Shown here: positions 823-54,084 of the stretch, in pieces
Position numbering within the stretch: position 1 is the first letter of the stretch
Layout: every line of letters begins with the position of its first letter
Source: a virus
Strand: one strand, 5' to 3'
Virus record (IMG/VR): IMGVR_UViG_3300042387_001967
Length of the DNA stretch: 64,000 nucleotides
Notes under the pieces: generated by a model
Database searches by the model: none
What the model saw: only the letters and a program-made list of their open reading frames with translations
Told to the model about the DNA's origin: nothing
Program-made: the position numbers and the translations under genes

Positions 823-852
823 ATTATAGCAGGCCGGTGCCGAGGATGTCCA
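823..852 (-). promoter_or_regulatory. possible sigma70-like promoter TGGACA-N18-TATAAT
   Basis: Hexamers read on the minus strand over the end of the 824..3994 CDS, upstream of 795. Confidence 0.3.
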
Positions 853-3800
853 TCTCGGGGAATTGTAGGGTGAGCGTGCCGGTGATGTAGGTGGAGGTCG
901 CATAGTCCCGCCATGCGACGAATGCAGCGGCGTGCTGGCGGATGATGCCGTTGCCGGTGATGGTGTAGCCGTTGTAGCTGGAATCGTAGAATGTCACGTT
1001 TCCTGTGATGCCGCTGGCTCCGTTGTAGGAAGATTCACGGAATGAGACATTACCAGTGATGGTGCCATTACCGTGGTATTTGGAGCCGTTGAAGGTGCAG
1101 TTGCCGACGATGACGGAACCGGATGCTGTGCCGGGGCCACTACCATTAAAGATACAGTCTCCGGTGATAGTGCTGTTGTTGGTGCTGGTGTCGTTGAACA
1201 CCCACGCCAAGGTGCCAGTCCAGTAGGAGGCGTCCGTAGTCCATGATTCTGACCCCGCCAGCGTGAATGTAGCACCATTTGGAAAACTCACCGTGCCTGA
1301 GACCGTGCCTTGCTGTGGGTTGAATGGATACGAGTTGTAGCCATTAGGCTGCGCGGGAGGGAATACTGTGTTGTTGAACGTGACGGTACCGGTAACATTA
1401 CCAGCGTTGTAGCTAGCATCGTTGAACGTCACGTTTCCCGTGATGGAGCTGGTGCTGCCGCTGGTGTCGTTGAAAGTAGGGTCGCCGGTGATGGTGCCGT
1501 GGGAGAAACTGGAATCGTTGAAGGTTGCGTTTCCGGTGATGGTGCCGTTGTAGTTGTGGGTGCTATAGTCGTTGAACACCCACGCCAGCGTGCCTGTCCA
1601 GTAGGAGGCGTCCACTGTCCATTGTTCTGAGTTTGCCAGCGTGAAGGTGGCTCCATTCGGGAAATCCACGGTGCCTGAAACGTAGCCTTGTTGTGGGTTG
1701 AGGAAATAATTCTGTGCGGTGGAGAAAGAGGTGTTGGTGAACGATGCGTTGCCGGTGATGGTTCCGGTGTTGTAGCTAGAATCGTTAAACGTGCAGTTGC
1801 CTTGGATCTCGCAGCTGTAGTTGTTATAGCTACCGTCATTGAATGTGACGCTGCCGCCGGGATTGAAGTTGCTGCTGCTGTGGCTACTGTCATTGAAGGT
1901 GACGTTGCCGCTGATGCCACCGCCACCGTGGTAGCTACTGTCATTGAAGGTGATAGTACCACTGACACTTCCGTAGGGGGCGGTGTTGCTGTACTCGGTG
2001 AACACCCATGCCAAGGTGCCAGTCCATGTGGAGGTGTTCGTCCACCACGAATGGTTGTATGCCAGCGTAAAGGTAGCCCCATTCGGGAAGTCCACGGTGC
2101 CTGAGACGGAGCCTTGCTGTGGGTTGGAGAATCCAGTGGTTGCGTAGGAGAAAGCTGTGTTGGTGAACGAGGCGTTGCCGGTGATGATTCCGTTGTCATC
2201 GACGTAGCTAGTATCGTTGAAGGTTGCGTTGCCAGTGATGGTTCCGGCGTGGTAGCTGGTGTCGTTGAAAGTTGGATTGCTGGTGATGTTGCCGTTGCTG
2301 TAGCTGGAATCGTTAAAGGTGCAGTTGCCTGTGATGGTGCCGGAGGAGTAGCTGCTGTCGTTGAATGTGGCTACGCCACTGAGATTGCCTCCGGTGGCAT
2401 TGTAGCTGGTGTCGTTGAACTCCCACGCCAAGGTGCCAGTCCAGTAGGAGGCGTCCGTAGTCCATACCGAAGAGTAAGCCACCGTGAATGTAGCCCCATT
2501 TGGAAAATCTACCGTCCCGCTCACGTATCCGCCGTATATGCTGTGCAGAGGGTCACTCGTGAACGTCGTCATTGTGAACGAAACATTACCCGTTGTGTCA
2601 CCCGAGTAATAGGCATTATCGTTTAAGGTAACATTTCCGGTAATGTCGCCGCTACACGACGTGTTGTCATTAAAAGTTGGATCACCAAAGATTGTGCCTG
2701 AGCCTGAGCCGCCCCATACGTAAACACTGTAATCGTTGAAGGTTGGATTACCATATATGTAGCCCCCTGTTTTTTGGGTGCTGTTGTTGAAGGTGACCGT
2801 TCCGGTAATGGTGCTATTGTTTTCCATTACGGTAGAGTCGTTGAAGGTAACATCTCCGTTGATGGTTCCGCCATCCATACCGCCATAGCTACTACCAGAG
2901 AACGTGACGTTGCCGGTAATAACCGCACTGCTGCCAAAGGAGTAACCTCCATCAAGGAAGTCACAGTCGCCGTTGATAGTGCCTTCGTTGAAATAGACCG
3001 TCCCGCCTGAGGCTACCGTGCAGTTTCCGTTGATAACGCCAGGGTAGCCATTGTTGACCACTCCGCCTACGCAGTCACCATTGATGGTTCCGTAGTTGTA
3101 ATTGGAACTATACCACTCAAAGTCCCCGTTGACGATGCCGTTTACCACAGGAGAATTGTTGCCGTTACGACTGTTGCCGTTGAAGGCGACCTCACCGGTG
3201 ATGGTGCCGTCGTTGTAGCTGCTGTCGTTGAAGGTACAGTCTCCGGTGATGGAGGCGGAAGAAGAACCGTTGTAGCTGGAGCCATTGAAGGTGCAGTCTC
3301 CGGCGATGCTACCCCAGTTGTTGTAGCTGGAATCGTTGAACGTGCAGTCTCCGGCGACATAGAGGGTGGTGCTACTGGTATCGTTGAAGGTACAGTCTCC
3401 GGTGATGGAGCCGTAGCTGTAGCTGCTGTCGTTGAAGGTGCAGTTGCCGTCGATGTTGCCTTCAAAGTTGGCACTAGAGTCGTTGAAGGTGCAGTTTCCG
3501 GCGATGTAGCCTGAATTGTAACTGGTGTCGTTGAACTCGAAGCTAGCGGCTGATAGCCCCACAGACGGCCACATACCTACATCCAGCACGCTGTCCCCAT
3601 TCACCGTCACCAACCCGAGCACGTCCGCCGAAGGGAGGGCAACCACCGTGCCGTTGCCAGTCGCGATGACGACATCATCGGCGGTCACGGGAATCACATG
3701 CAATTCACAAGTGAGGTCGCTCGTCTCAGTGGAGATTGCGGCCTGACTCAACTCAAAGGTCGTGCCATCCGTGATGCTCGCCACGGTGGTTCCGGTATCA

Positions 3801-3994
3801 ATGCCGTCGCCAGTGATAGGCCGCCCCACCACAAGGCCCGCCGTGCTGTCGCAGGTCACTTCCGTGTCCGTGTCAATGACATTCACGCCGGTCAGGGTGC
3901 CGGAAAAGCCCTCAGTGCAGGCGGCGTCTGCCCACCAGTTCCCGAGGGTGTCCCAGTTTTGGTCAACTGAGGCTGCGAAGTAGCGTGTCGGCAT
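824..3994 (-). CDS. repeat-rich tail fibre/adhesin-like protein (beta-solenoid)
   Basis: 1056 aa; dozens of FND[ST]SxNxGxIxG[DN]xT repeats plus four longer GTV[DS]FPNGATFT...WTGTLAW units; S/T/N/G rich; lower GC than the rest of the window. Confidence 0.75.
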   Translation of the reverse strand: MPTRYFAASVDQNWDTLGNWWADAACTEGFSGTLTGVNVIDTDTEVTCDSTAGLVVGRPITGDGIDTGTTVASITDGTTFELSQAAISTETSDLTCELHVIPVTADDVVIATGNGTVVALPSADVLGLVTVNGDSVLDVGMWPSVGLSAASFEFNDTSYNSGYIAGNCTFNDSSANFEGNIDGNCTFNDSSYSYGSITGDCTFNDTSSTTLYVAGDCTFNDSSYNNWGSIAGDCTFNGSSYNGSSSASITGDCTFNDSSYNDGTITGEVAFNGNSRNGNNSPVVNGIVNGDFEWYSSNYNYGTINGDCVGGVVNNGYPGVINGNCTVASGGTVYFNEGTINGDCDFLDGGYSFGSSAVITGNVTFSGSSYGGMDGGTINGDVTFNDSTVMENNSTITGTVTFNNSTQKTGGYIYGNPTFNDYSVYVWGGSGSGTIFGDPTFNDNTSCSGDITGNVTLNDNAYYSGDTTGNVSFTMTTFTSDPLHSIYGGYVSGTVDFPNGATFTVAYSSVWTTDASYWTGTLAWEFNDTSYNATGGNLSGVATFNDSSYSSGTITGNCTFNDSSYSNGNITSNPTFNDTSYHAGTITGNATFNDTSYVDDNGIITGNASFTNTAFSYATTGFSNPQQGSVSGTVDFPNGATFTLAYNHSWWTNTSTWTGTLAWVFTEYSNTAPYGSVSGTITFNDSSYHGGGGISGNVTFNDSSHSSSNFNPGGSVTFNDGSYNNYSCEIQGNCTFNDSSYNTGTITGNASFTNTSFSTAQNYFLNPQQGYVSGTVDFPNGATFTLANSEQWTVDASYWTGTLAWVFNDYSTHNYNGTITGNATFNDSSFSHGTITGDPTFNDTSGSTSSITGNVTFNDASYNAGNVTGTVTFNNTVFPPAQPNGYNSYPFNPQQGTVSGTVSFPNGATFTLAGSESWTTDASYWTGTLAWVFNDTSTNNSTITGDCIFNGSGPGTASGSVIVGNCTFNGSKYHGNGTITGNVSFRESSYNGASGITGNVTFYDSSYNGYTITGNGIIRQHAAAFVAWRDYATSTYITGTLTLQFPEMDILGTGLL

Positions 3995-6996: not shown

Positions 6997-9900
6997 CTAT
7001 GAAGGCGAAATCTCTACGTCGTCGTAAAGGTCCACTTCTCCCCGTTCGATAGCAGCCATCACGTCGTCGTCCGATGTGAACTTGTGCTTCTTTTGTGGGC
7101 GATTGGCGGGACTCAACATGTTCAGCCCGAGCAAGGTCTCATGCTTGGGATTTGCCATCGTCTTGCTGCGGTCCTTGATGGACCAGAGCATCTTCGAAGC
7201 CATCATCTTCTCGCGCACGTCCCTGACCGCCTCGTCGGTGGTCGGCACGTGCACGCTCATGGTGTTTGAGAGGATCACGCCGTCGGCCGACATGAAGGTT
7301 TCGTAGCCTGGGACGGTGAGGTCGTAGCCGGTTTCGCGGATGCCTGTCTTGTCGACTTCGACGACAGTGGCCCAGGTGATGTGCTCCTGGTCCAGGATGT
7401 CGCGAACCCAAGTCTTGAGCAGGTCCGAGTCCAACGCGCCACGATACACCGGGAGAGCCTCCAGGCGTTCCAGCAGTCTGCGTCGGCGGAGTCCACCCAG
7501 CGCGTCGCCGGCGTGCGCCGCGGTTTTGATGATGGATGCCAACTTGTAAGTCTCAGACCCCTTGTCGTTGTCAGCGGAGAACGGCGCAGCGGTCGCGTAA
7601 ACGCCGGCCCGTAGAATCTTCGCATTCGCGGATGTCAGCTCCACCACCTCGGAACGCAGCAAGGTCAGCGCAGCGTCGCGAGCCGCGACACGCTTGGCGA
7701 GCATCTCGCGCAGATGATCCAAGACTGCGCGCGCGCTCGGACGCGAGATGACACCTTCGTGTTTCCCCTTGGCCCACTGCACGACCATATTCTGCTGGTG
7801 CTTCTTCCAGTCCAGCTCCGGGCTGTCAGTTGTGCGGTCTTCGGCGGTGATCTTGGGATTGACGAGGTCGTGCTGGACGACGTCGAAGACGTTGCGGGGT
7901 ATGACCGCCTTGTTGAACACCGCCGCTGTGTTCTCGCGGACTACTTCCGCTTTGAGGAAGTTCTCACGTTTGTGCTCGGTGGCCAGCCCGGCGAAGAGGT
8001 CTAGCCGCTTGCAGTCCCACGTGGACATTGCGAGCACCCAGCATTCATTCCCGCCGCTGGTTTCCTTCGACCACGTAACCGAAGCACGCACGTCCAGCGT
8101 CATGCAGAGTGCTTGCAGTTCACGAATGAGTCTCAGCGAAGTGGATCCGATGTTAAACACGTTCCCCTTCCCTTCCTCGCCGCCATTCCCGACACTGATG
8201 GATCCGTCGGTGTCCACCATGCCAGTCAGGAACCCACGTCGAAACTCCTCCGGCGCGCGGAACAGGAATCCGGGGACGCGCTTGTTCGCTGCTCCGGATG
8301 TTTTTTCGTCGCGCTCGCCGCCCAGGTGTAACTGCAGAAACGCAGCCACGTGCTCACTTCCGGCGAAGTTGAAGCTGTGCCTGATCGTATCGCCGTATCG
8401 AGCGTCTCCCTCTTCCTTATTCTGCTCGTGGCGGTGATAGTAGAGCGTTCCCGCAGAATCCAGATGCTGTTCGATGAAGGATTTCAGACGCTTTGCGTTG
8501 TCCTCCTTGAGATCGGCGAGATGAAGATTCCGACGCCCCTTCCAGCCGCGCGTAGCGTAGAAATCGTAGTCTTTCTTATCCCACCATCCGTCGCCGCACA
8601 TCGCGCCCATGAACCAGCCCGCGTCGAAGTCCAGGACGATCTGGACGCTGCCCATCTTCACTTCCGCGATCGGTTCCAGTGTTGCTACCAGTTCCCGTAG
8701 GTTTCTCCCGCACGGAACCGCAACCTTTTTCTCCAGCGCATCTGTCGGCGTCCAGCGTCCCATCTCGCCCGTCGTCGGGTCCATGCCGTAGACGGCCCGC
8801 GGGTCGTCATCGGTGAAGGTCTGCCGACGGTTGGACAATGTGACAACCTCGATCGGAGGCGCAGTGTGCTCGCTCCACCCGGCGACGTCGGCCCATACCA
8901 ACGCCCCAGTATTCTCGTCGAATGCGATGACCTTGGTTCCCGGTAGGGCTTTGAAGAACCTGATATAGCTGTTGGTGCCCTGCTTCTCTCCGATGAGTTC
9001 CTCGCTGCGCGGGAAGTCCTCGAGGTCGATCACAGCCACTTCGTGCGTGGTCGGATCAATGTAGGGTAGTTGAAGTTTGTTATACATATCAGCAGCATTG
9101 CCGAGAATCTGAAAGCGGTCAACCAAATATGACGGCAAGGATGAAATTAGGTCGCGCTGAATCGCTGTAACTACCTGATTATGAACTTCGTCCCCGTCAA
9201 AATCGGCGTTCATTCCCTCCGTGATGAAGGTGTTCACCCGAATCGCGTCACCTGGAACAATCCGGGGACGCTGTCCGATCACGTTCGTCCGGTGCCATGC
9301 CGGGGACCTGGTGATCACGACGGGCCGGCGCGGCGTCTCATGCCCCTCCTTGTCGGTCTCCGTGCCCATCTCGTAGTCCAGCGCCTTGCGCGCCATCGGC
9401 GAGCGGTCAGTCAGATGCTTGAGCGCGGCGGCCGGCGCCATGCCGGAACGCACCAGCCGCCGCTGCACGTAGTTGCTGTAGAGCTTCCACGCCATCTCCT
9501 CGGGGATGCCGACGTCGTCCATGCCCAGGTCGGCGTCAGGCACGATGACGCCGCGGCCGACCGTGTCGACCGGCTTGGACAGCATCTTGGAGGCGTAAAA
9601 ACTCGTTTTTGGATTCGTACCGGTGACCATCTTGAAGAACCCCTTCACCTCGCGCGCGCGGGTCTTGGGGTTCGGGCTCTCGCCGTAGCCGTAGGCAGCC
9701 TTGGCCGCGCGCGTCATGTCCATGTAGGCCTCCGCCGCGCCGTCGCGCCCCATCGCCTTCTCCGTGTCGCTGTAGAGCCGGCGATACTCGAGCAGGTCCC
9801 GGTAGACCTCGTTCGAGTCGCCCGGGAGGAACGTGTCGCCGGTAACGCTGAACGGGCGGAACTTCGGCGGGATGACCGGCACGGATGTGAGCATCATGTG

Positions 9901-10131
9901 CTCCGGCCTCAGCTCGTTGACGCGCAGCCCGTGCAGGATGTTCAGCATCCGCACCGCGCGGCTGCGCTTGGTCTTGCTGCCGGCGCGGATGATGTCGCGC
10001 TGTTCCTTTTCGATGTCGTCGATGTTCATCCCCTGCAGCGCTGCGAGGATCGCTTCAGGGCCTGTGGTCGGAGGCGTGGTCATGCGCAGGAGCCTAGCCT
10101 GCTGTCGGCGTCGTGTCGCGCGAAATGTCAC
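6997..10131 (-). CDS. rpoC: multisubunit RNA polymerase beta'-like catalytic fragment (intein-containing)
   Basis: GPEAILAAL...MMLTSVPVIPPKFRP, MLSKPVDTVGRGVIVPD, RSPAWHR, NADFDGD, and after the intein TMSVHVP align with bacterial RpoC; start could instead be ATG 10083. Confidence 0.92.
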   Translation of the reverse strand: MTFRATRRRQQARLLRMTTPPTTGPEAILAALQGMNIDDIEKEQRDIIRAGSKTKRSRAVRMLNILHGLRVNELRPEHMMLTSVPVIPPKFRPFSVTGDTFLPGDSNEVYRDLLEYRRLYSDTEKAMGRDGAAEAYMDMTRAAKAAYGYGESPNPKTRAREVKGFFKMVTGTNPKTSFYASKMLSKPVDTVGRGVIVPDADLGMDDVGIPEEMAWKLYSNYVQRRLVRSGMAPAAALKHLTDRSPMARKALDYEMGTETDKEGHETPRRPVVITRSPAWHRTNVIGQRPRIVPGDAIRVNTFITEGMNADFDGDEVHNQVVTAIQRDLISSLPSYLVDRFQILGNAADMYNKLQLPYIDPTTHEVAVIDLEDFPRSEELIGEKQGTNSYIRFFKALPGTKVIAFDENTGALVWADVAGWSEHTAPPIEVVTLSNRRQTFTDDDPRAVYGMDPTTGEMGRWTPTDALEKKVAVPCGRNLRELVATLEPIAEVKMGSVQIVLDFDAGWFMGAMCGDGWWDKKDYDFYATRGWKGRRNLHLADLKEDNAKRLKSFIEQHLDSAGTLYYHRHEQNKEEGDARYGDTIRHSFNFAGSEHVAAFLQLHLGGERDEKTSGAANKRVPGFLFRAPEEFRRGFLTGMVDTDGSISVGNGGEEGKGNVFNIGSTSLRLIRELQALCMTLDVRASVTWSKETSGGNECWVLAMSTWDCKRLDLFAGLATEHKRENFLKAEVVRENTAAVFNKAVIPRNVFDVVQHDLVNPKITAEDRTTDSPELDWKKHQQNMVVQWAKGKHEGVISRPSARAVLDHLREMLAKRVAARDAALTLLRSEVVELTSANAKILRAGVYATAAPFSADNDKGSETYKLASIIKTAAHAGDALGGLRRRRLLERLEALPVYRGALDSDLLKTWVRDILDQEHITWATVVEVDKTGIRETGYDLTVPGYETFMSADGVILSNTMSVHVPTTDEAVRDVREKMMASKMLWSIKDRSKTMANPKHETLLGLNMLSPANRPQKKHKFTSDDDVMAAIERGEVDLYDDVEISPS
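7264..9189 (-). mobile_element. intein with LAGLIDADG homing endonuclease (642 aa), atypical N-terminus
   Basis: In-frame insert between NADFDGD and TMSVHVP; LAGLIDADG-like blocks GWFMGAMCGDG and GFLTGMVDTDG; C-terminal YDLTVPGYETFMSADGVILSN followed by +1 Thr. Confidence 0.9.
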
Positions 10132-13073: not shown

Positions 13074-13660
13074 GCCTTCACCTCCGCCAGCTCGTTCATG
13101 ATCAGCAGCTGCCCGTGGTGCTCGTAGGGCGTCCACTGGCAGCCCTCCGGCAGCTTGCCGGCCAGCGTCGTCATCGCCCCATACCACGTCTCGCCGATGT
13201 CCGTGTGCGCCCGCAGCGCCCGGTAGAACGTCGGCAGGCCGGCGCGGTAGCCACGCCACACCCTGGTCGGATGCCAGAAGCCGGCGCTGCCGCGTCGCAG
13301 GATGGGCCCCAGCGCCGCCAGCAGCTCCTCGTGCGTCAGGTCGTTGCCCTCGTTGTCGTCGCCCCAGATGAACAGCCGCTCCGGGTAGAACGCGGATGAC
13401 TCGTTGTCGCCACTGATCAGTGGTCGCCCGTTGCGCATCCCTTCCGAGAGGAACGCGTAGTGATGCTCCTTGGCGTCGTCGTCGACCCGCCACCCGTAGG
13501 GCGTGGCGATGCCGGCCGCGATGCGATCGGGCCTGCCCTTGATGGGGAACACGTGGTCGCCCTGTGACGTAGTCACTCCCTTGGGCGGCATGTCCGTCGA
13601 CAGGTTGTACATGGACTGCATGAAGCCCCACATGGCTCCGCTGAGCTGAATTACTTTCAT
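13070..13660 (-). CDS. hypothetical protein
   Basis: 196-aa ORF, overlaps both neighbours. Confidence 0.7.
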   Translation of the reverse strand: MKVIQLSGAMWGFMQSMYNLSTDMPPKGVTTSQGDHVFPIKGRPDRIAAGIATPYGWRVDDDAKEHHYAFLSEGMRNGRPLISGDNESSAFYPERLFIWGDDNEGNDLTHEELLAALGPILRRGSAGFWHPTRVWRGYRAGLPTFYRALRAHTDIGETWYGAMTTLAGKLPEGCQWTPYEHHGQLLIMNELAEVKA

Positions 13661-14553
13661 TGCTGTGTTGGGTTGTCGAGTTCGCGTTCACGTTTGCGCA
13701 AGATCTTCCGCAACTTGAGAGACGCTTCGTTTTGGATCTGCCTGATGCGCTCCCGTGTGAGGCCAACCTTTGTCCCGACCTCATCGAGCGAGAATCCATC
13801 AGCGCGCATCCGTATTATGAGACGTGCGCGCGCGTCGAGTTCGGACAGGCTCTCCTCCAGCAATTCCAGCGCTACAGGCTCCCGATACTCCTCCGCTGCT
13901 ACGTCTCTGGCGGCACGCAGCGGGCGGGCGAATGTGAGCGGTCCTTCCGGGAGTTCGCCTGACACGATGCGGGTATGAGTTCTGATGCGTTCCTGAGCGC
14001 GGTCTGGAGTCAGTCGTCCATCGGGACAGCATTCGCGACAGATGAACATACCAACACGCTGGCTCTTTCCGCGGCTATGGCCCTTGCTGCGGGGTCCGTG
14101 GATGATGACTCCGTTCTTGACCGGCACTCCAGTCGCGCGCACCTCGCAGTAAGCGCACTTGAGACCCCTATTTGCTGGAGGCCTGCCTTCAGCGATGGGC
14201 TTTTCGCGGCGTTTTGCGGCTGCAGCCAGGCCGCTCTCGGACTGGTTGTATCGACGCGTGTACTCGGGGTTTCGTTTACCGTTGATCCTAGAAGGTATGC
14301 CGTATTTCAACGGTTGGCGCATTCTCGCATTTGGATGCTTCTTGCGGTAATACCAGCGCTGATATGCGGGATTCTGCTTACCGTCGACCAGGCAGGGAGG
14401 AGCACCTTCGGCGCGTGGCTTGCGAGGTTTGACTCCGAGGACATTACGAGCATACCAGACATGGTAGGCTGGATTCCCGCGCCCATCTGGAAGCTTGCTT
14501 TTCGGTTTCTCGTTGGCTGCGTTCGTGCTCATGTCTGACGTTGATGCGATCAT
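13657..14553 (-). CDS. sigma70 region-4 HTH protein with N-terminal NPxY repeats and Cys cluster
   Basis: C-terminal FSLDEVGTKVGLTRERIRQIQNEASLKLRK; three [DN]GxxNPxY repeats; CAYC...CREC. Confidence 0.75.
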   Translation of the reverse strand: MIASTSDMSTNAANEKPKSKLPDGRGNPAYHVWYARNVLGVKPRKPRAEGAPPCLVDGKQNPAYQRWYYRKKHPNARMRQPLKYGIPSRINGKRNPEYTRRYNQSESGLAAAAKRREKPIAEGRPPANRGLKCAYCEVRATGVPVKNGVIIHGPRSKGHSRGKSQRVGMFICRECCPDGRLTPDRAQERIRTHTRIVSGELPEGPLTFARPLRAARDVAAEEYREPVALELLEESLSELDARARLIIRMRADGFSLDEVGTKVGLTRERIRQIQNEASLKLRKILRKRERELDNPTQQ

Positions 14554-31145: not shown

Positions 31146-33347
31146 TCACAGCATCGCCCGCGCTTCGGCCTCCGTGAGAATCCGCACGCCGGCCTTCTTT
31201 GCCTTGTCCAACTTGCTTCCGCAGTCCTCCCCGGCGATCAGGAAGTCCGTCTTCTTGGACACCGAGCTGCTGAGGACGGCGCCAACCTTCTCCAGCTCCG
31301 CCTCCATCACGTGACGAGGCACGCTGATTGTGCCGGTGAGCACGACCGTCTTGCCTTTGAGCAGGCTGTCGCCAGCCGCCGGCTCTGCCTTGACGGGTTC
31401 CGGCGCGTAGTTGTCCGACTTCACGGTGCCCGGGATGCAATCCCACAGGACGTAATGCCCGATTTCGCTCTGCACGAAGTTATCCAGATTCTTCAGCGAC
31501 ACCGGGCCGAGGTGATGGCTGATGTTATACTTTGCCTTCAGCTCGTCGAACTCCTTTTGCCGCTTGGCTTCGTGATAGTCCACCATGCGACGAAACAATC
31601 CCTGCGTATGCGAGCAATGCGTGATCAGCTCCTGGGTATTTTCGCACAACCGGCTGATTTCCTTCGACGTGTTCTTCCCGATGGTGTGGATCCCCAGCGC
31701 GACAATCCAGTTCCGCAACGGCAGTTTCTCCGCCGCATCCATGGCCCTGCGCAGTGTGTTCGCCCGTGATGCGCCGAAGGTCATCTTGCTGCCAGACTCC
31801 GTAGTCCACGACAGGTTGGCAAACCACGACGTAGGAGCCGCGAACAGGTCAAATGGGTGCTCGAACTCATCCAGCTCCAGCGGCGCGCGGAACGCGATCT
31901 CAGCGCACAGCTCAGTGCCCATCTGTGACAGGTTCAGGCAGTCGCGGCTGGCCATGTGCTCGATGCGGGCCGCCATCTGCGCCGGGCAGCCGGCGGTGTT
32001 GGTGCACATCCAAACTGATGCCGCCTTCTCTTCGTCCTCAGTCTTCCGCTTCTCGAAGCTCATACCGCCGCAGCTCGGGCACTTGTCGCCGATGTGATTC
32101 GTCAAGAAGAAGATGCTCTGGATCTTTCGCTCGCCGTGCGTAATCGACCGCAAAACTTCGGGTATAATCGCCCCAGCCTTGCGAACGACCACCCGGTCGC
32201 CCACCTGCAGCCCCAGGCGGTTGATCTGGTCCTCGTTGTGCAGAGTGGCGCGGGAAACGATGGTCCCATCCACCTCGACCGGTTCCAGCTCAGCGACTGG
32301 CGTCAGGACGCCGCTGCGGCCCACCTGGACGGTGATGGCCTTCAGCGTGGTCTCAACCTCCTCCTGCTTGAACTTGAAGGCGATGGCCCACCGCGGCGCC
32401 CGGGAGGTGCTGCCGAGGTGCTTGCGCAGGTCGTAGTCGTTGACCTTGAGCACGACTCCGTCGGTCGGATAGGGCTGATCGGCGATCTCCTTCAGCCGGA
32501 GCCGCGAGATCACCTCGCCCGTCGCTCGGTGGCTGCCGTCCGCGAGGAGGTAGACCGCCGGTGCGAACTTGAGCCCCAGCGATTGCAACCACTCCGCGTC
32601 GTCGCCGTAACAGTCGGACAACGTGCCAGAGGCGATGCCGTGTGCGATGAACGACAGCCCCTGTCCAATCACCTCCTCGAAGTTCTTGCGCCGCAGGATG
32701 CCGGCCGCTGCGTTGCGCGGGTTGGAGTAGACCTCCTCGCCCGCTGCCTTCTGCCGGGCGTTCAGCGCCTCGAAGTCGGCGAAGGTCATGAAGACCTCGC
32801 CGTTGATCTCGATCGGGTCGCAGTTCAGCTCCAGCGGCACCAGCTCGGCCATCATCACGTTGAGCGTGACATCATCCCCGGTCTCGCCGTCGCCGCGGGT
32901 GACCGCCTTGAGCAGTGCCACCCCCTTCGTCAGCCGCGGGTTCAGCCCGTAGGTCAGCCGCAGGCTCAGCCCGTCGATCTTCGGCTCGGCGACGAGCGCG
33001 CAGCCTTTGCAGGCCTCGTCGTCGTTCAGCTTCGCCAGCCACTTGGTCAGCTCATCGATGTTGCCGTCGTCCCCGGCGAACACGTTGTCCAGTGACTGCA
33101 TCGGGCAGCTGTGCTTCGCCTTGGCGAAGCCGGACTGCGGATGCGGGGCCGCCCCCACCTTGTTCAGGATGGTGTCGCGCCACACCGGGTCGTCCGTCTC
33201 GTGGGCATCGTCGGCGCGTGCGTCCTGGTGTTCCCGCCAGAGCGCGTCGTATTCTGCGTCCCGCATGGAGGGCTGGCCGTTGTGATAGTTCTCGTTGGCA
33301 AGCCGCAACACTTTCTCTCGGGCTGCGTTAGTCATGGGTGTGTTCAT
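31146..33347 (-). CDS. ligA: NAD-dependent DNA ligase
   Basis: EPKIDG adenylation motif, AVTRGDGETGDDVT, NPRNAAAG, TDGVVLK, PRWAIAFKF, ATLHNE, C4 Zn finger, C-terminal BRCT (SVSKKTDFLIAGEDCGSKLDKA). Confidence 0.97.
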   Translation of the reverse strand: MNTPMTNAAREKVLRLANENYHNGQPSMRDAEYDALWREHQDARADDAHETDDPVWRDTILNKVGAAPHPQSGFAKAKHSCPMQSLDNVFAGDDGNIDELTKWLAKLNDDEACKGCALVAEPKIDGLSLRLTYGLNPRLTKGVALLKAVTRGDGETGDDVTLNVMMAELVPLELNCDPIEINGEVFMTFADFEALNARQKAAGEEVYSNPRNAAAGILRRKNFEEVIGQGLSFIAHGIASGTLSDCYGDDAEWLQSLGLKFAPAVYLLADGSHRATGEVISRLRLKEIADQPYPTDGVVLKVNDYDLRKHLGSTSRAPRWAIAFKFKQEEVETTLKAITVQVGRSGVLTPVAELEPVEVDGTIVSRATLHNEDQINRLGLQVGDRVVVRKAGAIIPEVLRSITHGERKIQSIFFLTNHIGDKCPSCGGMSFEKRKTEDEEKAASVWMCTNTAGCPAQMAARIEHMASRDCLNLSQMGTELCAEIAFRAPLELDEFEHPFDLFAAPTSWFANLSWTTESGSKMTFGASRANTLRRAMDAAEKLPLRNWIVALGIHTIGKNTSKEISRLCENTQELITHCSHTQGLFRRMVDYHEAKRQKEFDELKAKYNISHHLGPVSLKNLDNFVQSEIGHYVLWDCIPGTVKSDNYAPEPVKAEPAAGDSLLKGKTVVLTGTISVPRHVMEAELEKVGAVLSSSVSKKTDFLIAGEDCGSKLDKAKKAGVRILTEAEARAML

Positions 33348-38489: not shown

Positions 38490-40589
38490 CTATGCTGCTT
38501 CGTAGATAGGCTTTACTTTGTCCCACACGTTGGAGTCCTGCGAATACCACGCCAAGCCGATGGCTCGAGACACGCCGCGGCTGACGCTGTTTCCGATGGC
38601 CCTAATGATCTCGCTCTTGTTGCAGTTTGCCCATGTCATTGAATCGGGAAAACCCATCGCGCGCTGCAGCTCGAGTGGCGTCAGCATGCGATAGAACAGG
38701 TCGATCTTGATCAGCTTCCCGTCCAGTTCGATCACCGGGTAGACCAGGGCGTGCCCGGCCTTGGTGCGCACGGTCGGCAGCGGCTCGTCGATCGACTTCC
38801 CCTCCGAGCCGTTGCTGTAGTAGACGTAGATCCACGGCTTGGCGTCGACCTTGCCCCGGCGCTTCAGCTCCGTCACCAGATGGTTGAGGAACGTGGTGGC
38901 GCGCGAGGTGTCCACGCCCTTCTCGCTGCACGCGTGAAGGAACCGGTCGGACACCACCTCGAGCTCGACCTCGATGCAGGTCTGGTTCGCCTTGGTCACG
39001 ATTGTGCGGACCGGGGCGTCGACCGGGTAGGTCCCGTCGTTGCCCCTGGCGCCGCCTGTCTGGTCGATGGCGAACATGAACGCCTCGGCAATGGCCTGGT
39101 TGCAGCCGCCAGCCGTGGAGGTCCGCAGCGGGGAGTCCACGTCCTTGCATACGCCGGTGCCGCGCTGGTTGTCCAGCGTGGCGATCTCAGGTTGCATCAC
39201 GTAGTGCCCCTGGGATGCTGTGAGCGCCGTCAGGGGGCTGTCGATGCTCTGGGCGGTGCTCTGGCCCTTCAGCTGAACGATCGCCGGCTCCACGAGGCCC
39301 TCGCCGGTCATCGTGGTGGTCACAGTGCTGACCGGCGAGTCGACGCCCTTCACCCAGTCCTTTTTGCTGCCGGCATGGTGCGGGATGATGTAGGCCTCTG
39401 ACCTCACGACGCCGCCGGCCCCGTGGCTCGTGACCGTGGGCACCGGGTCGTCCACGCTGTGCGTCCTGGGCTCTTGGCCTGGGGCTTCGCCGAAGTTCGG
39501 CGTGATGAATTCCCCTTCGGCCTTCACCAGTCCGCGCTCACCCTTCGCGGTAAACGTCAGCAGCGGCTGGTCCACGTCGTGCACACGACGATCACAGTCC
39601 GACGCCTTCGGGCTGCCATGAGCCGAGCTGATCAGGAACTCGCGCAGGCCGTATTTCACCAACCCGATGGCCAGGCGGCGGAACGTATTGTCAGCGAGGT
39701 TTTTGTCCCGCGTAAACACGCTCAGGCCTTTAATCGCCCACTGAATGATGCCCCGCGCGGTGCGCCAGTCCATCGGACGCCCGTGCCCGGTGCCGCGCTC
39801 CCCGGCGTAGGGGTCCGGCCAGACGATCTTCTTGCCTGAATCCTTGCGGACGAAGTAGACGAACAGCCTCTGGCGGATGGTGGGGTCACCGTAGTCAGCG
39901 GACTTGAGGACGCGGTAGTCGGACTCGTATCCCAGCGCCTGCATCTCGGCGATCCATGCCTGGAAGTATTCGCCGCGGCGCTCCTTGTCCGGCGCCTCGT
40001 AGGGTTGGTAGCCGGCAGCCTTCATGCGCTTGCCCCAGTCTGTCTCGGTCTCTTTCGCCCGTCGGCGCTCTTTTCTCGGCAGTTTCACTGGTCTGCCCTT
40101 CCGAGCCCACATGAGTTCGTCCACGATTGGCGGACCCGCTTTTTCCGGCCAACGCTTCTGGGTCACAGGGCCCCACGAAACGAATTCCCTAACATTTTCC
40201 ACGATTACGGCTTCAGGTCGCAGATGCTTCACCCAGTCGGTGACCGAGTGCGCGTGGCTGCGGTCCTGCTCGTTGACGCAGCTGGCCCCGCGCGCGACGC
40301 TGAAGAACGTGCATTGCGGCGACGCCCAGAGCAGGCTGCAGTAGGTGCCGACCGGGAACACAGCGGTAGGGTCCAACGTGAACAGATCCTCCGCCAGATG
40401 CCTGTGCTCCGGGTGGTTCTCTTGGTGGATGAGGATCGCCTTATCCCAGTGGTTAACGAACGTGCCGCTCACCTTGCGTCCCATCAGATCTGTGGCGTCC
40501 AGCAGTCCACCTCCGGACCCGCCAGCCCCGCAAAAGAGATCCACCATATTATCCTCTCGCTCATCGAGATACACTAGATTGTCGATCAT
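38490..40589 (-). CDS. C5 cytosine DNA methyltransferase with repeated target-recognition-like segments
   Basis: DLFCGAGG (I), WASPQC (IV, P-x-C variant), ENVREF (VI), RQRLF (VIII), RMLTPLELQRAMGF (IX), IGNSV (X). Confidence 0.92.
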   Translation of the reverse strand: MIDNLVYLDEREDNMVDLFCGAGGSGGGLLDATDLMGRKVSGTFVNHWDKAILIHQENHPEHRHLAEDLFTLDPTAVFPVGTYCSLLWASPQCTFFSVARGASCVNEQDRSHAHSVTDWVKHLRPEAVIVENVREFVSWGPVTQKRWPEKAGPPIVDELMWARKGRPVKLPRKERRRAKETETDWGKRMKAAGYQPYEAPDKERRGEYFQAWIAEMQALGYESDYRVLKSADYGDPTIRQRLFVYFVRKDSGKKIVWPDPYAGERGTGHGRPMDWRTARGIIQWAIKGLSVFTRDKNLADNTFRRLAIGLVKYGLREFLISSAHGSPKASDCDRRVHDVDQPLLTFTAKGERGLVKAEGEFITPNFGEAPGQEPRTHSVDDPVPTVTSHGAGGVVRSEAYIIPHHAGSKKDWVKGVDSPVSTVTTTMTGEGLVEPAIVQLKGQSTAQSIDSPLTALTASQGHYVMQPEIATLDNQRGTGVCKDVDSPLRTSTAGGCNQAIAEAFMFAIDQTGGARGNDGTYPVDAPVRTIVTKANQTCIEVELEVVSDRFLHACSEKGVDTSRATTFLNHLVTELKRRGKVDAKPWIYVYYSNGSEGKSIDEPLPTVRTKAGHALVYPVIELDGKLIKIDLFYRMLTPLELQRAMGFPDSMTWANCNKSEIIRAIGNSVSRGVSRAIGLAWYSQDSNVWDKVKPIYEAA

Positions 40590-40846
40590 TTCGACCTCCT
40601 GCGCGCTACTCGCAAGGCTGGCAGGAGTCTGCCGTTCGCAGCACTCCAGCGCTTGCATGTATAATCCATTGCGCGGTCATGCTGCACGGACTCGGCGTCA
40701 GTAGTGCCCGCACAAGGGCAACCTCGGTCGTCCTTGTAGCTGAACGCGGTCGCCGGTTTACCGTCATACGGCTTCCAGCTGCGACCAGTCCACATGTGAA
40801 TATCCGTCGCATCCTTCGGCGGTCTGCAGAGCTTTCCTTTCTTCAC
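40586..40846 (-). CDS. hypothetical protein
   Basis: GTG start overlapping upstream TGA. Confidence 0.45.
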   Translation of the reverse strand: MKKGKLCRPPKDATDIHMWTGRSWKPYDGKPATAFSYKDDRGCPCAGTTDAESVQHDRAMDYTCKRWSAANGRLLPALRVARRRSK

Positions 40847-52170: not shown

Positions 52171-54084
52171 CTATTTCTGCATGACATCCGCCAGCGGCAC
52201 ACGCCCAGCGAGGACGTCCTCGAGCTGCTGCTTCGTCAGTCCCATCATCGTGCGCGCGGCGTCTTCCATCGCTGGATTGAGGATGGGCCGCGGCAGACGA
52301 ATGCGGCCCCACCGCTCTCCATTCAGCAGCCGATTGTCGAAAAGGCCACCGGGGATCGGTGTCAGGTTGCGAAGATTTACCATCTCGCCGTTTTCGACGT
52401 CGATCGGATCGCGCTCGTCCAGGTCGCCGTCCGTGAATGGCGCGAGGCGATACTTGCCCTTGCCGGAGTTGCGCGTGTTGATGCCGGCGCCCGCCAGCAG
52501 CGCGCGGAACTTGTGCCAGACAAACGGCTCGCCGATCTTTGGTAGCGTCTTGTCCGTGCGCAGTGCCATCCAGAAGTCGTGATTCTTCTGCCCGCGGATT
52601 GTGGCATTCTCCCGCATCAGCGAGTAGGCCCCGCTGGACAGTGTTGCAAAATTCTCGAGACCCGAGAAGCGTTTGGCCTGTGCGAATTCGCCACCGCCGC
52701 GCGTCGGCTGCTGATTCTGGTCGTAGCTGCCCGTGCCGCGGGCGCTGATCTTGCCTTCCGACGTGTGGTGGAGCTTGTGGACGAAACCGTAGCCCACCGT
52801 CACCGGCGCATCCAGCGTCCGGCCTTCTTCCGGATCGTAGACCATCTCCTGTGACTGCACGCCATTCTCGCGTTCCAACTGGTCGATGTAGTCGTTCCAG
52901 TTTTGTCCCTTCGGCAGGTAGCTGGGCAGCTTCAGCGCGTGCCCCAGCTTCTTGGCGACCTTGCCGAGCCGCAGCTCGTGCTGTGACGCCGGGTTCGCCC
53001 GGGAGACCAGGGACAGCGGATTGAGCAGCGCATCCAGCGGCTGTCCGTCCTCCGTCCGCGGCATCTGGTCGTCGGGAATGATCTTCGAGACGGTCGCCTT
53101 GGCGCCCTGCCGCAGCACGATCTTGTCTCCGACTTCCGTCGGCTTCAGGAATTTCAGCACCACCTTGTAGCCGTTCTTGGTCGCGCGCGCGGCGATGACC
53201 TGGGCCGGCTGCTGTCCGTGCCACACCTGAGCGGCGTCGCGGCGCTGCTGCCTCAGCGCCTTGCTGAGGCGCCCGATGTTTGCGCCGTCTGACGACAGCG
53301 TGCGAGGCATCGTCGCGAGCATGACGGGGTCGCCAGACTCCAGCACGGTGCCAGGTCGCACCAGCCCGTGTTCGTCAAAATTTTCCAGCTTCTCCTTGGT
53401 GAAGCGGTTCGGGAAGAGGGCGCGGTAGTGGCTGAGACCTGTCTTCAGATTGTCCGAGCGGTCCTGGTGCATCACCTTGTATTGGACGGCGGACAGGCGC
53501 TTGGCGAACGACTCGCTGACAGGCATGGCGTCGTCCATTCCGAAGCCCTTGAATGGCACCAGAGCGATGCGGGCGTTCAGCCCCATGTTTTGCACGCCGT
53601 TGTCGTCCGTGTAGGACGATGCTGCCATCATCTGCCCGGGTTTGAAGGTGTCACCTTTCTTGAGCAGTGCGCGGGAGGTTATGCCCGATTTCTGGTTGAA
53701 AAATTGTTCGTTGTACAGGTCGACGTCCGCCGTCTCGCCGTCATCGTAGGAGACGCGGATGTAGTCCGGCGTGACGCTGATGACGCGACCGGCACGCTTG
53801 GCGCGGACGGCGCCCATGTTCTCGCCGACGATTTCGTCAAAGCTGCGCCCTTCGGGGTCGGACGTGTCCAAGTTCTGGATCAGCGGAGCTTCGCCCTTGT
53901 CGATCGCCAGCGCCTGGTTCGCGAACCGCGCGCCGTAGAACAGCCGCGGCGCTTGCACTGCTCCCGCCAGCGGAATCATGTTGGTGTGTGACCCAAACTG
54001 CTGCGAGGGCGAGGACAGCTCGTAATCGACATCCGGATCGTCATCCGGCACCTCTTCGAGGCGGTTGTTGCGTACGACGTGCAT
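52171..54084 (-). CDS. rpoB: RNA polymerase beta C-terminal half fused to beta' N-terminal segment
   Basis: TNMIPL..RLFYGARFANQA, GMDDA, VGDKIVLRQGAKATVS, LLNPLSLVSRAN, HKLHHTSEGKISARGTGSY..QQP match RpoB; tail GGLFD..ERWGRIRLPRPILNP..GLTKQQLEDVL matches the RpoC N-terminus. Confidence 0.9.
   Translation of the reverse strand: MHVVRNNRLEEVPDDDPDVDYELSSPSQQFGSHTNMIPLAGAVQAPRLFYGARFANQALAIDKGEAPLIQNLDTSDPEGRSFDEIVGENMGAVRAKRAGRVISVTPDYIRVSYDDGETADVDLYNEQFFNQKSGITSRALLKKGDTFKPGQMMAASSYTDDNGVQNMGLNARIALVPFKGFGMDDAMPVSESFAKRLSAVQYKVMHQDRSDNLKTGLSHYRALFPNRFTKEKLENFDEHGLVRPGTVLESGDPVMLATMPRTLSSDGANIGRLSKALRQQRRDAAQVWHGQQPAQVIAARATKNGYKVVLKFLKPTEVGDKIVLRQGAKATVSKIIPDDQMPRTEDGQPLDALLNPLSLVSRANPASQHELRLGKVAKKLGHALKLPSYLPKGQNWNDYIDQLERENGVQSQEMVYDPEEGRTLDAPVTVGYGFVHKLHHTSEGKISARGTGSYDQNQQPTRGGGEFAQAKRFSGLENFATLSSGAYSLMRENATIRGQKNHDFWMALRTDKTLPKIGEPFVWHKFRALLAGAGINTRNSGKGKYRLAPFTDGDLDERDPIDVENGEMVNLRNLTPIPGGLFDNRLLNGERWGRIRLPRPILNPAMEDAARTMMGLTKQQLEDVLAGRVPLADVMQK

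Follow-up and report, generated by a model that had tools for sequence, protein, structure and literature searches.

The 64,000-nucleotide stretch of viral DNA analyzed here (IMG/VR virus record IMGVR_UViG_3300042387_001967, hereafter called the window) carries a gene for the N-terminal part of a phage RNA polymerase beta-prime subunit, and this gene is interrupted by a 642-residue insert directly behind the catalytic NADFDGD loop. It seems that the insert is an intact, mobile intein with a LAGLIDADG homing endonuclease, which splices without a nucleophile at its residue 1, probably in a class-2-like way through direct attack by the threonine at extein position +1; on the sequence comparisons described below, we give this complete reading a probability of about 0.5. 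Its two parts deserve separate judgments. That splicing occurs at all appears likely, and, if it does occur, direct attack by Thr+1 has roughly an even chance of being the first step.

The interrupted gene and the junctions of the insert are arranged as follows.

6997..10131, minus strand: split-type phage RNA polymerase beta-prime N-terminal subunit gene with the intein (open reading frame [ORF] and translation, 1044 aa)
9190..9210, minus strand: catalytic loop NADFDGD, residues 308-314, the last Asp being extein residue -1
7264..9189, minus strand: intein of 642 aa, in which a Hint splicing domain is combined with a LAGLIDADG endonuclease and a middle domain made of helices
7261..7263, minus strand: Thr+1, the first C-extein residue and presumed ligation nucleophile, followed by MSVHVP
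6997..7260, minus strand: remaining C-extein, from MSVHVP to the stop codon (translation and P0252 alignment)

The N-extein matches the Pfam family RNA_pol_Rpb1_2 (E 8e-19), bacterial beta-prime chains are among the Foldseek matches of the modeled gene product, and the host protein minus the insert has about 400 aa, as a split-type beta-prime N-terminal subunit. The ORF opens at GTG 10131, but the true start is likely ATG 10083, since the alignment with the intein-free allele P0252 begins at window residue 17. NADFDGD is the magnesium-binding loop of RNA polymerase, and the insert, which spans exactly Glu315 to Asn956 of the ORF product, follows it directly. A search for shorter proteins found P0252 (386 aa), which in a gap-free alignment is 96.6% identical to window residues 17-314 directly followed by 957-1044; therefore, the boundaries of the insert are exact. 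P0252 reads NADFDGD-TMSVHVP at the junction, the very sequence that the earlier sequence-only reading of this DNA had said excision must restore, and other intein-free alleles read NADFDGD followed by T, A, Q or another residue. The insert is thus in frame and placed at a conserved host site, and its precise removal restores the host sequence, as expected of an intein. The nearest virus record (G001, a 68%-complete fragment) gave no match to the beta-prime gene.

The splicing blocks of the insert were located at the positions listed here, where positions B:7 and B:10 were assigned by comparison with canonical sister inteins, that is, Ser1 or Cys1 inteins at the identical site.

9157..9189, minus strand: N-terminal arm EVHNQVVTAIQ (insert residues 1-11), a block A strand without nucleophile; predicted strand 319-325
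9034..9156, minus strand: family-specific loop of ~40 aa after strand 1 (insert residues 12-52), absent from canonical sister inteins
8866..8874, minus strand: Ser106-Glu-His108, whose His never varies in the family and may correspond to the NX-motif His
8797..8814, minus strand: block B equivalent Thr126-Asp-Asp-Asp129-Pro-Arg131, with Thr at B:7 and Asp replacing His at B:10
7291..7329, minus strand: block F, GYDLTVPGYETFM, with Asp623 at F:4 and Glu630 replacing the block F His, then Thr631
7264..7281, minus strand: block G, GVILSN, with penultimate Ser641 replacing His (G:6) and terminal Asn642

Residue 1 of the insert is Glu, encoded by GAA at 9187..9189, and the N-terminal arm, which opens EVHNQVV, aligns with S-V-I-G-S-T of the sister inteins. 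The block B region (insert residues 124-131) reads TFTDDDPR, while the sister inteins have TDDH or SDDH there. The catalytic positions compare with those of canonical inteins in the following way.

B:7: Thr in canonical inteins, Thr126 in the family
B:10: His in canonical inteins, Asp129 in the family
F:4: Asp in canonical inteins, Asp623 in the family
Block F His: His in canonical inteins, Glu630 in the family
Penultimate residue, G:6: His in canonical inteins, Ser641 in the family

Judged from these alignments, Asp, Glu and Ser stand in place of the three catalytic histidines, on top of the lost residue-1 nucleophile. The sequence-only reading had already described the Glu start directly after NADFDGD, a block B without His, the ILSN end without a penultimate His before Thr+1, and a block F that keeps its Asp, so that the insert is not a class 3 intein with a block F Cys; the ORF translation bears out each of these points.

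The rest of the insert also has the make-up of an intein. In a phmmer search against the Protein Data Bank (PDB), the C-terminal Hint half aligned to the Ssp DnaB mini-intein 1mi8 (DLTVPGPHNF against DLTVPGYETF), and a sub-threshold match to the Pfam family Intein_splicing was found at the C-terminal end. In the AlphaFold2 (AF2) model, with a mean predicted local distance difference test (pLDDT) score of 79, the Hint and LAGLIDADG domains are folded and a helical domain lies in the middle, and Foldseek matched the model to the endonuclease-associated TliVMA intein 7qss (E 2e-13). A profile of the Hint N-half, searched against solved structures, found no intein at a significant E-value (best E ~0.5). 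The Hint fold seen in the 1mi8 alignment and the 7qss match, blocks F and G, the C-terminal Asn642, and a Thr at +1, where Cys, Ser or Thr is expected, are together what an intein should show. Between the two Hint halves lie two further domains.

7930..8664, minus strand: LAGLIDADG homing endonuclease domain with its two motifs, 1 (8587..8619) and 2 (8203..8235), each retaining the acidic residue
7390..7929, minus strand: middle domain of helices, insert residues 421-600 (modeled helices at 771-913)

The endonuclease domain scores 28.7 bits against LAGLIDADG_3 (Pfam cut-off 22.5), and the GDG and DTDG columns, conserved at at least 0.9 in the family, are both present in the window, as in a LAGLIDADG endonuclease. 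The helical middle domain predicted by the model probably binds DNA or serves as a linker; shorter family members have it deleted, and it is absent in P0026 and the canonical sisters. At 8160..8200 (insert residues ~331-343, after the second LAGLIDADG motif), the subclade of the window has Gly, Lys, Gly, Asn and a small insertion in place of the consensus Lys, Pro, Gln, Leu. Such sequence changes may mean that the subclade's endonuclease is altering its specificity or losing activity, with the splicing blocks intact.

The unusual residues are not peculiar to the window. A HMMER search against 1.84 billion representatives retrieved 528 clusters with an E-value of 1e-3 or lower, 196 of them at 1e-30 or lower, a word-indexed search gave additional full-length relatives, and a scan of IMG/VR returned no match with the single sequence and 52 loci with the profile. 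All residue counts of the family given here refer to the 132 complete inserts that could be delimited, every one of which lies after xxDxDGD and before T-x-x-x-H-x-P of the polymerase. Near-invariant among them are Ser106 (128/132), His108 (132/132), Thr126 (124/132), Asp127 (132/132), Asp128, Asp129 (131/132), Pro130, Arg131 (132/132), Ala-Val-Tyr-Gly, Arg145 and Pro148, and, toward the C terminus, Asp623-Leu-Thr-Val-Pro-Gly, Glu630, Thr631, Phe632, Gly637, Leu640, Ser641, Asn642 and Thr+1; the D, E, T and F of block F (DLTVPG-x-ETF) are each found in all 132 inserts, and the window has every one of these residues. Motif-based selection of the inserts could account for part of this invariance. 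Among 158 proteins picked by the block F motif only, 157 have the SN-T end, and loci found via other patterns retain E(D)-T-F and LSN-T.

Residue 1 is not part of this signature. It is Gln in 42 members, Asp in 26, Glu in 17, Leu in 11, Ala in 11, Ser in 5, Phe, Tyr and Gly in 4 each, Cys in 3, and another residue in the few that remain, so that Ser or Cys occurs in 8 of the 132. The sequence-only reading had raised the idea of a conserved Glu or Gln at this position, which these counts do not support. We rejected a role for Glu1 or Gln1 itself, as about one-third of the members have Leu, Ala, Phe, Tyr or Gly there. Residue 2 is Gln in 75 members, Cys in 16 and Val in 15; a Cys at this position was considered as the real nucleophile and discarded, being present in only those 16 members, replaced by Val in the window, and bound to leave an extra loop residue compared with the intein-free alleles. 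An artefact of sequencing or assembly in codon 1 or in the frame, hiding a real Cys or Ser start, has a negligible probability: P0002, an independent assembly 78% identical to the window, shows the same start EVHNQVV, so Glu1 is not an assembly error, and independent assemblies share either this start or D-x-x-NQVV; 124 of the 132 members are without Ser or Cys at residue 1, and the ORF 6997..10131 is continuous throughout the insert.

Codon comparisons between the window and three relatives gave the insert a nonsynonymous divergence (pN) of 0.14-0.16 against a synonymous divergence (pS) of 0.61-0.74. In the endonuclease domain pN was 0.17 and pS at least 0.64, and the lowest pN values were those of the Hint halves (0.03-0.10), under those of the exteins (0.17-0.43). 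The random decay of homologues, by which the sequence-only reading would have recognized a dead intein, was therefore not observed, and these comparisons indicate that the insert is under strong purifying selection and is not a decayed intein. It also moves and recombines independently of the host gene, as judged from three sequence comparisons. The exteins of P0007 are 45% and 34% identical to those of the window, with 66-93% for the intein parts; the N-extein of P0005 is 97% identical, with only 17-46% over the first 420 intein residues and 89-100% over the last 220, which makes the P0005 intein a mosaic as expected of recombination between intein subtypes; and presence or absence of the insert is polymorphic at 96.6% host identity (P0252). 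In each of five family-carrying phage genomes (94-100% complete, 171-210 kb), PF00623 matches one locus only, so the interrupted gene is the sole beta-prime catalytic gene of these genomes.

These observations bear on the possibility that the insert is never removed, being either a tolerated 70-kDa domain beside the catalytic aspartates or part of a nonfunctional gene copy with a dead intein. It is true that every residue used by studied inteins to start splicing is missing. However, the purifying selection is strong, particularly on the splice-junction blocks, SN-T is invariant, the insert moves between divergent hosts and recombines, and near-complete genomes have no other beta-prime catalytic gene than the one that carries it; moreover, the NADFDGD site is buried at the active center in all solved multisubunit polymerases. 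We regard permanent retention as very improbable, and the enzyme tolerating a 642-aa insert, one of three options in the sequence-only reading, is likewise unlikely on the grounds of selection, mobility and the sole catalytic gene. Among those three options, the remaining one being a conditional switch on phage transcription, unusual splicing chemistry is the one favored here, given that the residues concerned recur as a fixed set across a large family on which purifying selection acts.

Canonical inteins with Ser1 or Cys1 were found at the identical NADFDGD-T site, all before Thr+1, and they are full-length homologues of the window intein, endonuclease included.

P0062-66 and P0069: Ser1, block B His, HN end
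P0060: Ser1, HN end
P0038/67: Cys1, TDDH, HQ end
P0078: Ser1, SDDH, G-A-F-T-F, QD-T end
P0082: a further canonical intein at the NADFDGD-T site

These sister inteins share with the family the insertion point, Thr+1, the LAGLIDADG domain, the His108 column and a block F of the form D-[LVI]-x-V-P, but they differ in that they begin with Ser1 or Cys1, have a His in block B (TDDH, SDDH) and end in HN, HQ or QD, and they are without the Y-E-T motif and the ~40-aa loop after strand 1 that every family member has. P0038/P0067 and P0078 have canonical starts with His-Gln or Gln-Asp ends, not His-Asn. From its sequence, P0078 seems to occupy a place between the canonical inteins and those of the nucleophile-less family. 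In a quick maximum-likelihood tree, the root of which is not established and in which several canonical branches are long, one branch with a Shimodaira-Hasegawa-like approximate likelihood ratio test (SH-aLRT) value of 99 parts 55 family inserts from 11 canonical ones. The tree is consistent with a single origin of the family from a Ser1/Thr+1 class 1 intein.

Two side observations concern the host protein at or near this site. A loop variant, NADFNGD, with Asn-Gly for the middle catalytic Asp (extein position -3), was seen in 21 of the 132 intein-bearing alleles and in 0 of ~105 intein-free alleles. It is carried by P0005, P0008-14, P0020, P0024, P0062-65 and P0069, thus by alleles of canonical sister inteins too, and the window has Asp at 9196..9198; because P0005 has the Asn yet its N-extein is almost that of the window (97%), the Asn travels with the intein subtype and not with the host. 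P0061, a close homologue that is intein-free at NADFDGD, has another canonical-looking intein at its residues ~215-538, with block B TPNH and a GN-S end, at a site corresponding to window protein residues ~176-177 (PKT-SFY).

Some relatives are naturally split. In two of the five near-complete genomes and at other loci, the intein is encoded on two genes, the first of which stops 12-54 aa past xxDxDGD, inside the family-specific loop, and the second of which starts ahead of a D-L-x-D-x-P motif.

Split loci: L007, L013/L033, L014, L024/L025, L034-L037, L051-L054
Split proteins: P0081, P0299, P0308, P0313, P0364

Residue 1 of the split relatives is Phe, Leu, Tyr, Gln, Ala or Cys, and those at L007/L013 are without a residue-1 nucleophile. 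Some C-fragments are endonuclease-less mini forms that retain TDDDPR, GYETF and LSN-T; at L036/L037, an N-fragment of 13 aa and an endonuclease-less C-fragment of ~243 aa go with a spacer of ~1 kb that holds a 165-aa ORF. In the window, the family-specific loop in which the relatives break has a low guanine-plus-cytosine (GC) content (0.43 against ~0.6 elsewhere). The GC content is ~0.43 over 9060..9180 (insert codons 4-43, N-terminal arm and loop) against ~0.6 in the rest of the gene, and synonymous divergence in this region is slightly below that elsewhere (pS 0.55-0.65). The unconserved residue 1, the Glu in place of the block F His, and the canonical sisters and split forms at the same site go beyond what the sequence-only reading had reported.

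The split relatives, with two halves on separate genes broken within the intein, could also speak for self-removal without ligation, in which Asn642 cyclization would cut the C-junction and hydrolysis the N-junction, and the beta-prime, nicked within its catalytic loop, would still assemble, in the manner of a bacterial intein-like (BIL) domain. The missing residue-1 nucleophile would suit such a process, and these phage polymerases are already built from multiple pieces. Cleavage needs no +1 nucleophile, however, and Thr+1 is present in 132 of 132 intein-bearing alleles, whereas the intein-free alleles have Thr in 73 cases, Ala in 24, Gln in 7 and Glu in 1; a Thr+1 fixed with the intein and variable without it argues for ligation over cleavage alone. 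Furthermore, the intein-free alleles are continuous through the catalytic loop, and multisubunit polymerases are not known to be broken at the magnesium-binding loop. The invariant Thr+1 likewise sets the family apart from BIL domains, which are defined by cleavage only and no +1 nucleophile (PMC4031507). Removal without ligation is therefore quite unlikely in our view.

Compared with the known classes, the family, judged on its sequence, fails the definitions of classes 1, 2 and 3 and is most like class 2 (Ser G:6, Asp F:4). For class 1, Glu1 (GAA) is not Cys, Ser or Thr and Asp129 is not the His of B:10; because residue 1 is Glu and unconserved in the family, the class 1 acyl shift cannot start splicing. 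Class 2 consists of KlbA orthologues only, such as that of Methanocaldococcus jannaschii, with Ala1, Cys+1 and a needed His B:10; its pattern combines Ser G:6, Thr B:7 and Asp F:4 with the lack of a nucleophile at residue 1, and it is thought to stem once from class 1 (PMC4031507), a single origin with which the tree of the present family is likewise consistent. The window intein shows this pattern (Glu1, Ser641, Thr126, Asp623) together with the terminal Asn, but it is unlike class 2 in its variable residue 1 (Glu here, not Ala1), Thr+1 in place of Cys+1, Asp129 in place of His B:10, the extra ~40-aa loop after strand 1, and the host protein, which is RNA polymerase beta-prime and not KlbA. 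Class 3, the mycobacteriophage Bethlehem DnaB type (PMC2807308, PMC7664689), resembles the family in lacking a residue-1 nucleophile and in being phage-associated, and it is also thought to have a single origin. However, its WCT motif, made up of Trp B:12, Cys F:4 and Thr G:5 (PMC7664689), is absent at all three positions, which are occupied by Arg131, Asp623 and Leu640.

His B:10 is described as the residue best conserved among inteins and as absent from only two known inteins (PMC4031507). The Tko CDC21-1 intein (cited in PMC4031507) is like the family in being functional without His B:10, with a compensating residue elsewhere, but it keeps the residue-1 nucleophile and is a single case against hundreds of clusters. 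Cysteine-less oxyester class 1 inteins combine Ser1 with Ser or Thr at +1 and have an NX-motif His preceded by Arg or Lys (PMC10189870). They share with the family the Thr/Ser chemistry at +1 and the lack of a catalytic cysteine, but unlike the family they have Ser1 as their first residue and a block B that retains its His in the sequence; the window has the Thr+1 and not the Ser1. The invariant His108 of the family lies upstream of block B and is preceded by Lys or Arg in 45 of the 132 members, and by its place in the sequence it may be the counterpart of the NX histidine. The PolB16 OarG intein, which is atypically split, can do without its block B His and has an N-fragment of 15 aa (PMC10189870); the family's split relatives also have very short N-fragments, of 12-25 aa.

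The absence of a residue-1 nucleophile, together with Ser at G:6, Thr at B:7 and Asp at F:4, makes up the class 2 pattern, and it is on this ground that direct attack by Thr+1 is favored. The Thr+1 hydroxyl would attack the Asp(-1)-Glu1 peptide bond directly and give a branched ester, Asn642 cyclization would then free the intein, and an O-to-N shift would restore the peptide bond. The roles of the three missing histidines would be taken over by the acidic set of Asp127, Asp129 and Glu630, acting with Thr126, Asp623, His108, Arg131 and Ser641. Precise exit of the intein would join NADFDGD to TMSVHVP, which is needed for an active polymerase, and the product would be the natural intein-free sequence.

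A tentative and somewhat unlikely alternative is that another group starts splicing. In one variant, the side-chain carboxylate of Asp(-1) would form a cyclic anhydride and expel the amino end of the intein, and Thr+1 would open the anhydride; in the other, an internal hydroxyl (Ser106, Thr126, Thr625 or Thr631) would act like the class 3 block F cysteine. Asp is found at -1 in 132 of 132 members and the family only at the NADFDGD site, the unusually acidic active site (TDDD, Glu630) could keep Asp(-1) or the leaving amine protonated, and a number of the hydroxyl residues do not vary. Amitai et al. (PNAS, 2009) reportedly described N-terminal cleavage that did not depend on Cys1, with Asp at -1. 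Class 3 itself offers a precedent for an internal nucleophile that replaces residue 1 (PMC4031507). However, the polymerase fixes Asp(-1) in any case, and the residue's invariance is therefore uninformative about intein chemistry; canonical Ser1 sister inteins sit beside the same Asp, and opening of an anhydride could give isoaspartate in the catalytic loop. An internal nucleophile meets the difficulty that F:4, the class 3 nucleophile position, is Asp here, and that neither His108, also present in the canonical sisters, nor residue 106, which varies there (Thr, Ser, His), is new to the family. The narrower claim that the catalytic Asp(-1) of the host enzyme starts splicing through an anhydride, with capture by Thr+1, and so defines a fourth, extein-assisted class, is unlikely. 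If it were true, splicing would proceed without a cysteine, a histidine triad or an initiating nucleophile supplied by the intein, and the confinement of the family to one site would be explained.

Direct attack by Thr+1 has its own difficulties. Class 2 inteins rely on Cys+1 and His B:10 (PMC4031507); a Thr hydroxyl is a much weaker nucleophile than the Cys+1 of class 2, and His B:10 is absent here. The fixed Thr+1 could come partly from shared ancestry or from the homing target and not from the chemistry. In addition, none of the 50,697 records of cultured phages contains the insert, and a protein search of them matched the N-extein only; near-identical DNA was not found in cultured phages either.

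The setting is a large phage. Relatives lie on viral contigs in IMG/VR that reach 210 kb and in some cases carry terminal repeats, and the window has the following further genes of interest.

52171..54084, minus strand: piece of an RNA polymerase beta subunit, at a distance of 45 kb from the beta-prime piece
13657..14553, minus strand: sigma-like gene with sigma-70 region 4
31146..33347, minus strand: NAD-dependent DNA ligase
38490..40658, minus strand: DNA methyltransferase
824..3994, minus strand: 1056-aa protein with a bactofilin domain

In the literature searched, no paper joined 'intein' with 'NADFDGD', none described the family, and no fourth intein class was found; matches for rpoC, phage and intein were unrelated, jumbo-phage papers treat inteins in general terms only, and absence from a searchable library is not proof of novelty. 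The family is apparently a large, undescribed clade.

The current rules recognize three mechanistic classes of intein with His B:10 as the most conserved residue (PMC4031507), and they are challenged by a clade of hundreds of clusters without a residue-1 nucleophile and without the histidines of blocks B, F and G. This clade is selected and mobile, and it interrupts large phages' sole polymerase catalytic gene at its most critical loop. If splicing is true, the family would represent a new way of activating an amide for hydroxyl attack, or a fourth splicing class, and would provide protein engineering with cysteine-free inteins and natural split forms with N-fragments of 12-25 aa; meanwhile, transcription in these phages would be tied to a post-translational maturation step.

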